This document shows, piece after piece, positions 10,611 to 11,326 of a DNA stretch of 64,000 nt. The notes under the pieces were generated by a model, which did not search any database, was not told where the DNA came from, and saw only the letters and a program-made list of their open reading frames with translations. A program made the translations under genes and the position numbers. The first letter of the stretch is position 1. Each line of letters begins with the position of its first letter. The stretch is from positions 178,374,001 to 178,438,000 of the forward strand of contig OZ024741.1 of assembly GCA_964016885.1 (NCBI GenBank), read 5' to 3'. Source of the stretch: Eledone cirrhosa (lineage: Eukaryota).

Positions 10611-11326
10611 TAAGTATGTATACGTACATACATATATGTATACAGACGTACAGTAGTATGTATATATATATACATGCATGCACACATATATATATATATA
10701 TATATATATATATATATATATATATATATGTACGTATGGATTTACCGAACATTTATTATAATGCTCGGTGTGTTTGTAAACAAACATCCAGAATTAAGCC
10801 GTACAGTGTCTAGCAACCATCGTTGCTCATTTGTTCAACACTGACAAAGGAACGCTGTACTAGTTTCTAGCTTATTAGCTATCGTCAGCAACGTATACCT
10901 TCCTCCTGCTAGATGGTTGAACGTCTGAAAGTATTTACTTTCCTTATGCATATTAACGGCTGAGCAGCCTAATTTGCATATCGAGTGAGTTAATCGGCCG
11001 GGGTACCGAAAACGATAAACAAAAAAAATGAAACGAAATTTCATTTCTCACTCTTAGTACGGCTGTTACTTAAATATAAGTATGTATACGTACATACATA
11101 TATGTATACAGACGTACAGTAGTATGTATATATATATATAAATACATACATGCACACATATATATATGTACGTATGGATTCACCGAACATTTATTATAAT
11201 GCTCGGTGTGTTTGTAAACAAACATCCCGAATTAAGCCGTACAGTGTCTAGCAACCAGTCAGTGTTGAACAAACGAGCAACGACGGTTGCTAGGCACTGT
11301 ACGGCTTAATTCGGGATGTTTGTTTA
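10611..11326 (-). mobile_element. Retrozyme-like element: ~440-bp unit with ~180-bp terminal redundancy plus inverted segment
   Basis: 10611-10818 repeated at 11077-11257; 11258-11325 is the reverse complement of ~10778-10845; intact hammerhead inside; abuts (TA)n. Confidence 0.75.
10852..10894 (-). ncRNA. Type I minimal hammerhead ribozyme, apparently intact
   Basis: Minus strand: ACGTTG CTGACGA TAGCT-AATA-AGCTA GAAA CTAG TA CAGCGT; 6-bp stem I (one G.U), 5-bp stem II, palindromic CTAG stem III, GUA site. Confidence 0.85.

Follow-up and report, generated by a model that had tools for sequence, protein, structure and literature searches.

A truncated copy of a high-copy hammerhead repeat in Eledone cirrhosa, likely a non-LTR retrozyme mobilised by Penelope-like elements

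Molluscs are among the animals from which non-LTR retrozymes are already known (PMC7229834), and a preprint (Li, Clavereau and Pollet, bioRxiv 10.64898/2026.07.22.740005) argues that they derive from Penelope-like elements (PLEs). In its canonical metazoan form, the type I hammerhead combines a 6-bp helix I and a 4-5-bp helix II with a palindromic helix III of 1-2 bp, and the min-HHR of PLEs has a helix II of 7-8 bp and an extra base after A9 (PMC4209133); the min-HHR definition also includes G10.1-C11.1 and a 4-5-bp helix I. Endonuclease-bearing (EN+) PLEs insert as partial tandems with an inverted, 5'-truncated copy and a tail on one end, and favour (TA)n targets (PMC8557442); published non-autonomous PLEs generally resemble the 3' end of their helper (PMC8557442; bioRxiv 10.64898/2026.07.22.740005). 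For cephalopods, none of the papers listed by literature searches was on a retrozyme, and the giant squid genome paper counts 235 Hammerhead_1 matches, nothing more.

Here we analyse a locus within a 64-kb window, the whole stretch of DNA under study, from the 3.0-Gb genome of Eledone cirrhosa. It is likely an ordinary copy of this known class, a non-LTR retrozyme and as such a non-autonomous PLE; since both the class and its link to PLEs are already in print, the window locus by itself teaches little.

The hammerhead and the layout of the locus

An earlier note on this DNA had proposed a hammerhead core with three stems on the minus strand at 10852-10894, and this was confirmed by direct reading. 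From 10894 to 10852 the minus strand reads through a 6-bp helix I, CUGACGA, a 5-bp helix II with a 4-nt loop (10868-10881) and GAAA, followed by the palindromic CUAG of helix III, closed by A15.1-U16.1 (10859-10864), with GUA preceding the predicted cut between 10858 and 10857; helix I continues beyond an internal loop. A hammerhead descriptor run on both strands of the window returned this site as its single match, against a chance rate of 0.01 matches per shuffle (100 block-wise dinucleotide shuffles), and an Rfam scan of the window at E<=1 gave 131 matches, nearly all of them microRNA models on TA tracts or hairpins and none a hammerhead family. The ribozyme had been called minimal; by PMC4209133 it is instead a canonical metazoan type I, and a PLE min-HHR is ruled out by its helix II of 4-5 bp, its helix I of 6 bp and U10.1 standing opposite U or A.

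Taken alone, the window ribozyme scores no better in folding than its shuffles do (z -1.0 and -1.6), and helix III is absent from its fold of lowest energy. Closing that helix as a monomer hairpin costs about +5.6 kcal/mol, and the CUAG homodimer is worth -6.8 kcal/mol. Because an intramolecular helix III is costly and two palindromes pair well, dimers are favoured in these calculations, so that helix III, predicted to pair between two ribozymes, would favour cleavage as a dimer; this agrees with PMC4209133 and PMC7229834 and with the expectation of mainly dimeric cleavage that had been attached to the CTAG stem.

The element lies flush, at its 3' end, with a (TA)n microsatellite of about 130 bp (10480-10610) that is its likely insertion target. 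One complete unit of 466 bp occupies 10611-11076 on the minus strand, with a tail-less 3' end at 10611 and 95% identity over 346 non-TA bases to a natural copy of 430 bp (L046), the difference in length being due to TA expansion. A 62-nt segment of it (11015-11076, minus strand) serves as the 3' tail of one arm in other insertions and is internal only here. A 5'-truncated second unit (11077-11257, minus strand) follows and ends short of the ribozyme; the period of this head-to-tail repeat drops from 466 to 438 across the TA tract, as described before, with 2 mismatches in the 90 non-TA bases compared. The sequence then inverts, again as described, into a head-to-head second arm of 69 bp on the plus strand (11258-11326), which aligns to 10777-10845 with 4 mismatches in 69 and lacks its 3' part; the remainder was not found within the 64-kb window. 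An unrelated 5'-truncated LINE (11328-12304, plus strand), with the zf-RVT end of ORF2 and an (ATT)n tail, abuts the inverted arm, and has 6,089 candidates in the genome at 92-94% identity.

The window copy thus consists of the arm that lacks a tail and the beginning of a second one, cut short at the abutting LINE. What had been read as a terminally redundant unit is a 5'-truncated partial tandem with an inverted arm. As the second unit and the inverted arm both end before the ribozyme, the locus carries one hammerhead only and could not release unit-length RNA, and the window copy is likely a dead end for circle production. It lies outside the 'active' retrozymes of Li et al. 2026, which have two or more units in succession that carry a complete hammerhead.

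Several other features share the window. At 12331-12414 a hairpin of about 80 bp, near-perfect and closed by a TA loop, sits at the end of another repeat, and broken reverse-transcriptase frames at 31005-33575, with a weak RVT_1 match, belong to another non-LTR retrotransposon. Tandem repeats occur at 9711-9998 (16/37 bp), 59197-59773 (110/173 bp) and 60017-60417 (203 bp), the last of which we take to resemble a SINE dimer. A second, unrelated hammerhead-like family with a period of about 310-316 bp lies at 4887-5416 and 51655-52042 and in the flanks of 14/148 loci; in its window copy (about 5047-5090, minus strand), helix III is 4 bp long and helix II is broken. As the earlier note had observed, the element at 4887-5416 has the same tandem-plus-fold-back arrangement, and it has no similarity to the unit beyond chance words of 8-15 nt.

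The family and its sister in the genome

The unit recurs throughout the genome. A DNA similarity search gave 935 candidates, of which 40 were scored and, the window's own place excepted, found to be 94-97% identical; a 32-nt ribozyme core had 9,819 exact matches and a relaxed pattern 12,601, with 0 matches for the reversed-pattern controls of both searches. The copies, mostly 85-97% identical, are dispersed over many contigs, and the proposal of a multi-copy, retrozyme-type repeat, as against a local duplication, has therefore held up. The natural unit (L046, 430 bp) has 36% GC and is non-coding, its longest ATG frame being 68 aa. Its monomer folds far above shuffles (z -8.5), a score that alternating purine-pyrimidine tracts inflate in part. 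The family has also been seen in four contig runs of unrecorded kind, one of them skewed to a minority subfamily.

In the locus samples, which were chosen by pattern or similarity and come largely from one contig, runs of 1, 2, 3 and 4+ intact cores were present in 84, 7, 3 and 2 of 112 loci, and 16 had none. At least two tandem ribozymes were therefore found in 12/112, and the window locus is of the single-core type, like 84/112. Release of unit-length RNA needs tandem ribozymes, so only the tandem loci could supply it. Copies that run beyond the unit's 5' boundary enter further units, up to 8 or more, and all six boundary-ended loci among the first 30 (including L006, L013, L016, L024 and L025) have a next unit, and no ORF, upstream. 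We rejected an autonomous PLE as the identity of the repeat: the unit lacks an RT/GIY-YIG ORF and its copies run on into further units. A type I hammerhead, a tandem unit of about 430 bp that is low in GC and non-coding, dispersed monomers to multimers and a self-paired RNA are traits that the family shares with non-LTR retrozymes.

We then compared ribozymes across 365 copies from 191 loci, a count that includes tandem units and so does not consist of independent copies. Conservation of the core letters is 94-100%, 340/365 copies have GUA as the triplet, and one helix I pair is standard in 347/365 across five pair types. At the base of helix II, 355/365 copies have U·U and 2/365 have U-A, the window copy, with A at 10868, being of the latter kind; this, together with its single ribozyme, does not fit the earlier description of the locus as the best and intact candidate.

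A relaxed search that excluded U10.1 returned 11,340 matches, where its control had 7. The first 100 of these 11,340 are mostly a sister family with G10.1-C11.1 and a spacing of 466-469 bp, which is homologous to the studied unit (66% identity over 217 nt). At L180-L190 (for example G000:C1:5738326-5752444) it forms near-identical arrays of about 30 units that end in an inverted copy, and these loci are better candidates for active source loci. The sister family retains all helices, with 7/16 pairs changed on both sides. Over five aligned sequences, a small and related set, the named structure is paired in 79/80 cells, above all slid controls, and helix III is invariant. Judged from these alignments, the hammerhead is retained through compensatory changes between homologous families.

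Within the unit, about 90-100 nt upstream of the core (window region 10988-10981, minus strand), lies an octamer-like word, ATGCAAAT, which is kept in the sister family. An internal snRNA-type promoter has been reported for newt satellite 2 (in a passage of PMC2220036). The host U1/U2 genes (L191-L220) are tandem arrays with AATTA near -90, TCAGT at -56 to -58 and a TATA-like box near -31, and no octamer was found within 260 bp of their promoters. An internal promoter of this type finds no support in the family, whose score of 8.1 bits, against 15.5-24.1 for true promoters, is roughly the level expected by chance in a unit. At a similar offset the family at 4887 reaches 11.0 bits, and no such site was found in the sister family.

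Insertion anatomy and the Penelope-like elements of the genome

To see how copies end, we mapped 231 arms in 140 loci, along with a second set of 51 loci (60 fetched, 9 duplicates dropped). In the sense of the ribozyme, 3' ends are fixed, falling at the unit boundary in 90/231 arms and 45-65 nt beyond it in 103/231 (others 38), and 5' ends are scattered. By a strict TA test, 56/64 long-tail ends, 54/90 tail-less ends and 3/39 short-tail ends are flush with TA. Head-to-head arms were seen in 63/140 and 26/51 loci, with 2 tail-to-tail joins in the first set. Exactly one of the two arms carries a tail, of 49-62 nt on family arms, in 41/43 and 10/13 classifiable pairs (51/56 in all), a count that leaves out 25/68 and 13/26 arm pairs with an unclassifiable end and in which 4 of the 41 are two duplicated pairs within one locus. 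Both arms are of the same ribozyme subtype in 23/28 pairs, where shuffling gives a mean of 7.4 and 0/20,000 shuffles reach the observed value. Target-site duplications are unreadable inside the (TA)n flanks.

None of the arms starts at the predicted cut site (0/179 and 0/62; about 2 expected, so the depletion is not significant), an absence that circular and uncut templates would predict alike. A 5'-end hot spot at the 5' edge of the ribozyme (unit 244-251), which in the discovery set accounted for 7/60 multi-unit arms (post-hoc p 0.02-0.09), failed a pre-stated replication (0/34 in 51 new loci) and was dropped. Composite insertions as a whole have undergone local duplication, and long arrays are found at some loci (L128; L254/L255; L274-L278), which indicates that DNA-level amplification adds to retrotransposition.

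With their fixed 3' ends, variable 5' ends, partial tandems, inverted arm, one-sided tail and microsatellite target, the insertions of the family look PLE-made. Young PLE fragments with RT motifs, a CxxxxC-CxxC linker and GIY-YIG lie within the window itself at 2256-3468, 6000-7800, 18312-18765 and 46150-50900, including a head-to-head inverted pair centred near 6850-6980. This PLE, which by its linker would be of the Neptune/Nematis type, has 34,904 candidates at 94-96% identity and stop-free frames of up to 1,218 aa, as well as a min-HHR-like core about 230 nt from its 3' end; 18/33 of its 3' ends have a tail (35-60 nt) and 15/33 run straight into TA. The language-model neighbours of its protein are HTH_animal/GIY-YIG/RT clusters (0.96-0.97); in a Pfam search of the PLE the GIY-YIG domain was not called and the RVT_1 match was weak and sub-threshold. 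A second PLE family, found in the flanks of the loci, encodes a protein 54-65% identical to that of the young PLE, and both families have min-HHR-like cores with a long helix II, unlike the canonical ribozyme of the unit.

Comparing the unit by blastn with the 3' UTRs of these two PLE families returned nested copies and short chance words only, and no homology. The earlier proposal of a mechanism that uses PLE RT therefore stands as far as insertion anatomy goes and finds no counterpart in DNA common to the unit and the two PLE families; it is from the anatomy that we infer PLE machinery for the retrozyme family. Retrozyme copies lie within the TA run directly behind PLE 3' ends at L027, L062, L064, L102, L141 and L178, as would be expected if microsatellite targets are common to both.

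Competing explanations and comparison with known systems

We regard it as probable that the window copy is a 5'-truncated, two-armed insertion of a high-copy retrozyme, copied into (TA)n by the RT and endonuclease of a PLE acting in trans, with a circle from dimer cleavage as its template. Copy number, the tandem unit, the polarity of the ends, same-subfamily arms, the one-tail rule and structure-preserving ribozyme variation can all be read from the genome. By analogy with the known class, source loci with at least two tandem units would be transcribed, paired ribozymes would cut the RNA after GUA, mostly as dimers, and the monomer would be circularised by a host ligase of the RtcB type. At TA repeats, both strands would then be nicked by the PLE endonuclease; the RT, primed two times at the 3' end of the element, would run round the template and halt at scattered points, yielding partial tandems joined 5'-to-5'. 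The same family might instead have spread, still through PLEs, from linear, uncut read-through transcripts of arrays, with a ribozyme that rarely cuts and a circle that is unneeded. Weak activity is implied by the prevailing U·U and by a helix III missing from the lowest-energy fold, uncut RNA would account equally well for the lack of 5' ends at the cut site, and only 1/9 predicted retrozyme dimers of Xenopus cleaved in vitro, the other 8/9 being inactive (bioRxiv 10.64898/2026.07.22.740005). A ribozyme that rarely cuts sits poorly, however, with the core, helices and palindromic helix III kept by apparently compensatory changes between families that are 66% alike, and a U·U base is tolerated (PMC3088659), the U·U ribozyme of the axolotl both cleaving and giving circles; we therefore think this course of events rather unlikely.

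The two remaining readings depart further from our preferred one. The unit could be the pseudo-LTR, at the 3' end, of an unseen autonomous PLE whose heavily 5'-truncated insertions make up the copies, for which the PLE-like anatomy would be natural; 24/57 Xenopus retrozyme families matched known TEs, nearly all of them PLE termini (bioRxiv 10.64898/2026.07.22.740005), and our comparison covered two PLE families of this genome. What lies beyond the 5' boundary is nevertheless another unit, up to 8 or more of them, and the unit's ribozyme is canonical where both PLE families have min-HHR-like cores, which leaves this reading improbable. The other reading places the origin at the DNA level, in a satellite, a foldback element or a locally duplicated segment whose hammerhead is there by chance or as a passenger; in its favour are the slippage-prone TA-rich tracts and the long arrays at some loci. 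Dispersal over many contigs, fixed 3' against variable 5' ends, one-sided tails and compensatory changes would all be unexpected from it, and a chance hammerhead is expected at 0.01 per window. Copy counts, insertion anatomy and compensatory changes thus largely refute this origin, which we find scarcely credible.

Returning to PLE mobilisation of a circular RNA, a more specific version can be put forward tentatively: that a Neptune-type PLE recruits, by RNA shape alone, a retrozyme that shares no homology with any autonomous element of the genome, one RNA species, either a circle or helix III-paired RNAs, serving as the source of both arms. We hold this to be doubtful; if true, the one-tail, two-arm rule would be the genomic footprint of a PLE trans-mobilising circular RNA, with three parallel families. 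The family is in any case a convenient system, with >12,000 copies, a sister family with a G-C base of helix II and young, open-frame helper candidates, and its natural U·U, U-A and G-C variants offer a clean test of whether weak ribozymes tune circle production.

Among known systems, the metazoan non-LTR retrozymes of coral, Mytilus mussel and axolotl (PMC7229834) are likewise non-coding tandems, 150-450 bp long and below 45-50% GC, with a canonical type I hammerhead, and likewise have thousands of copies, a self-paired unit and minimal-hammerhead PLEs in the same genome. Compared with them the Eledone unit is unrelated in sequence, lies at the long end of the size range and occurs mostly as dispersed single-ribozyme insertions; a one-sided tail and head-to-head arms are not mentioned in the Results and Discussion of that paper. 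Axolotl HHR_Amex2 has a U·U base of helix II, like the family majority, and its cleavage, 22% for the monomer, is much higher for the dimer, with circles formed (PMC7229834); axolotl Amex1 and newt satellite 2 likewise have a weak palindromic helix III and cleave much better as dimers. In Eledone, both weakening features are found in one ribozyme, within a unit of 430 nt versus 330-350 nt.

EN+ PLEs of the Neptune/Nematis type and Chlamys MRC1 (Craig et al. 2021, PMC8557442) share with the family the partial tandems, inverted arm, one-end tail and (TA)n targets. The Eledone unit differs from them in lacking an ORF and in its tail of 49-62 nt, against the 30-40 described, and non-autonomous Chlamys elements generally have 3' homology to a helper, which the Eledone unit lacks with respect to the two PLE families compared. 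The vertebrate retrozymes of Li, Clavereau and Pollet are of the same class, have the same proposed helper and occur as monomers, dimers and multimers within each family. Those authors argue from co-occurrence and the phylogeny of pLTRs; no pLTR relative was found for the Eledone unit, and it is its insertion anatomy that adds, to the published co-occurrence and phylogeny, a mechanistic argument for PLE mobilisation.
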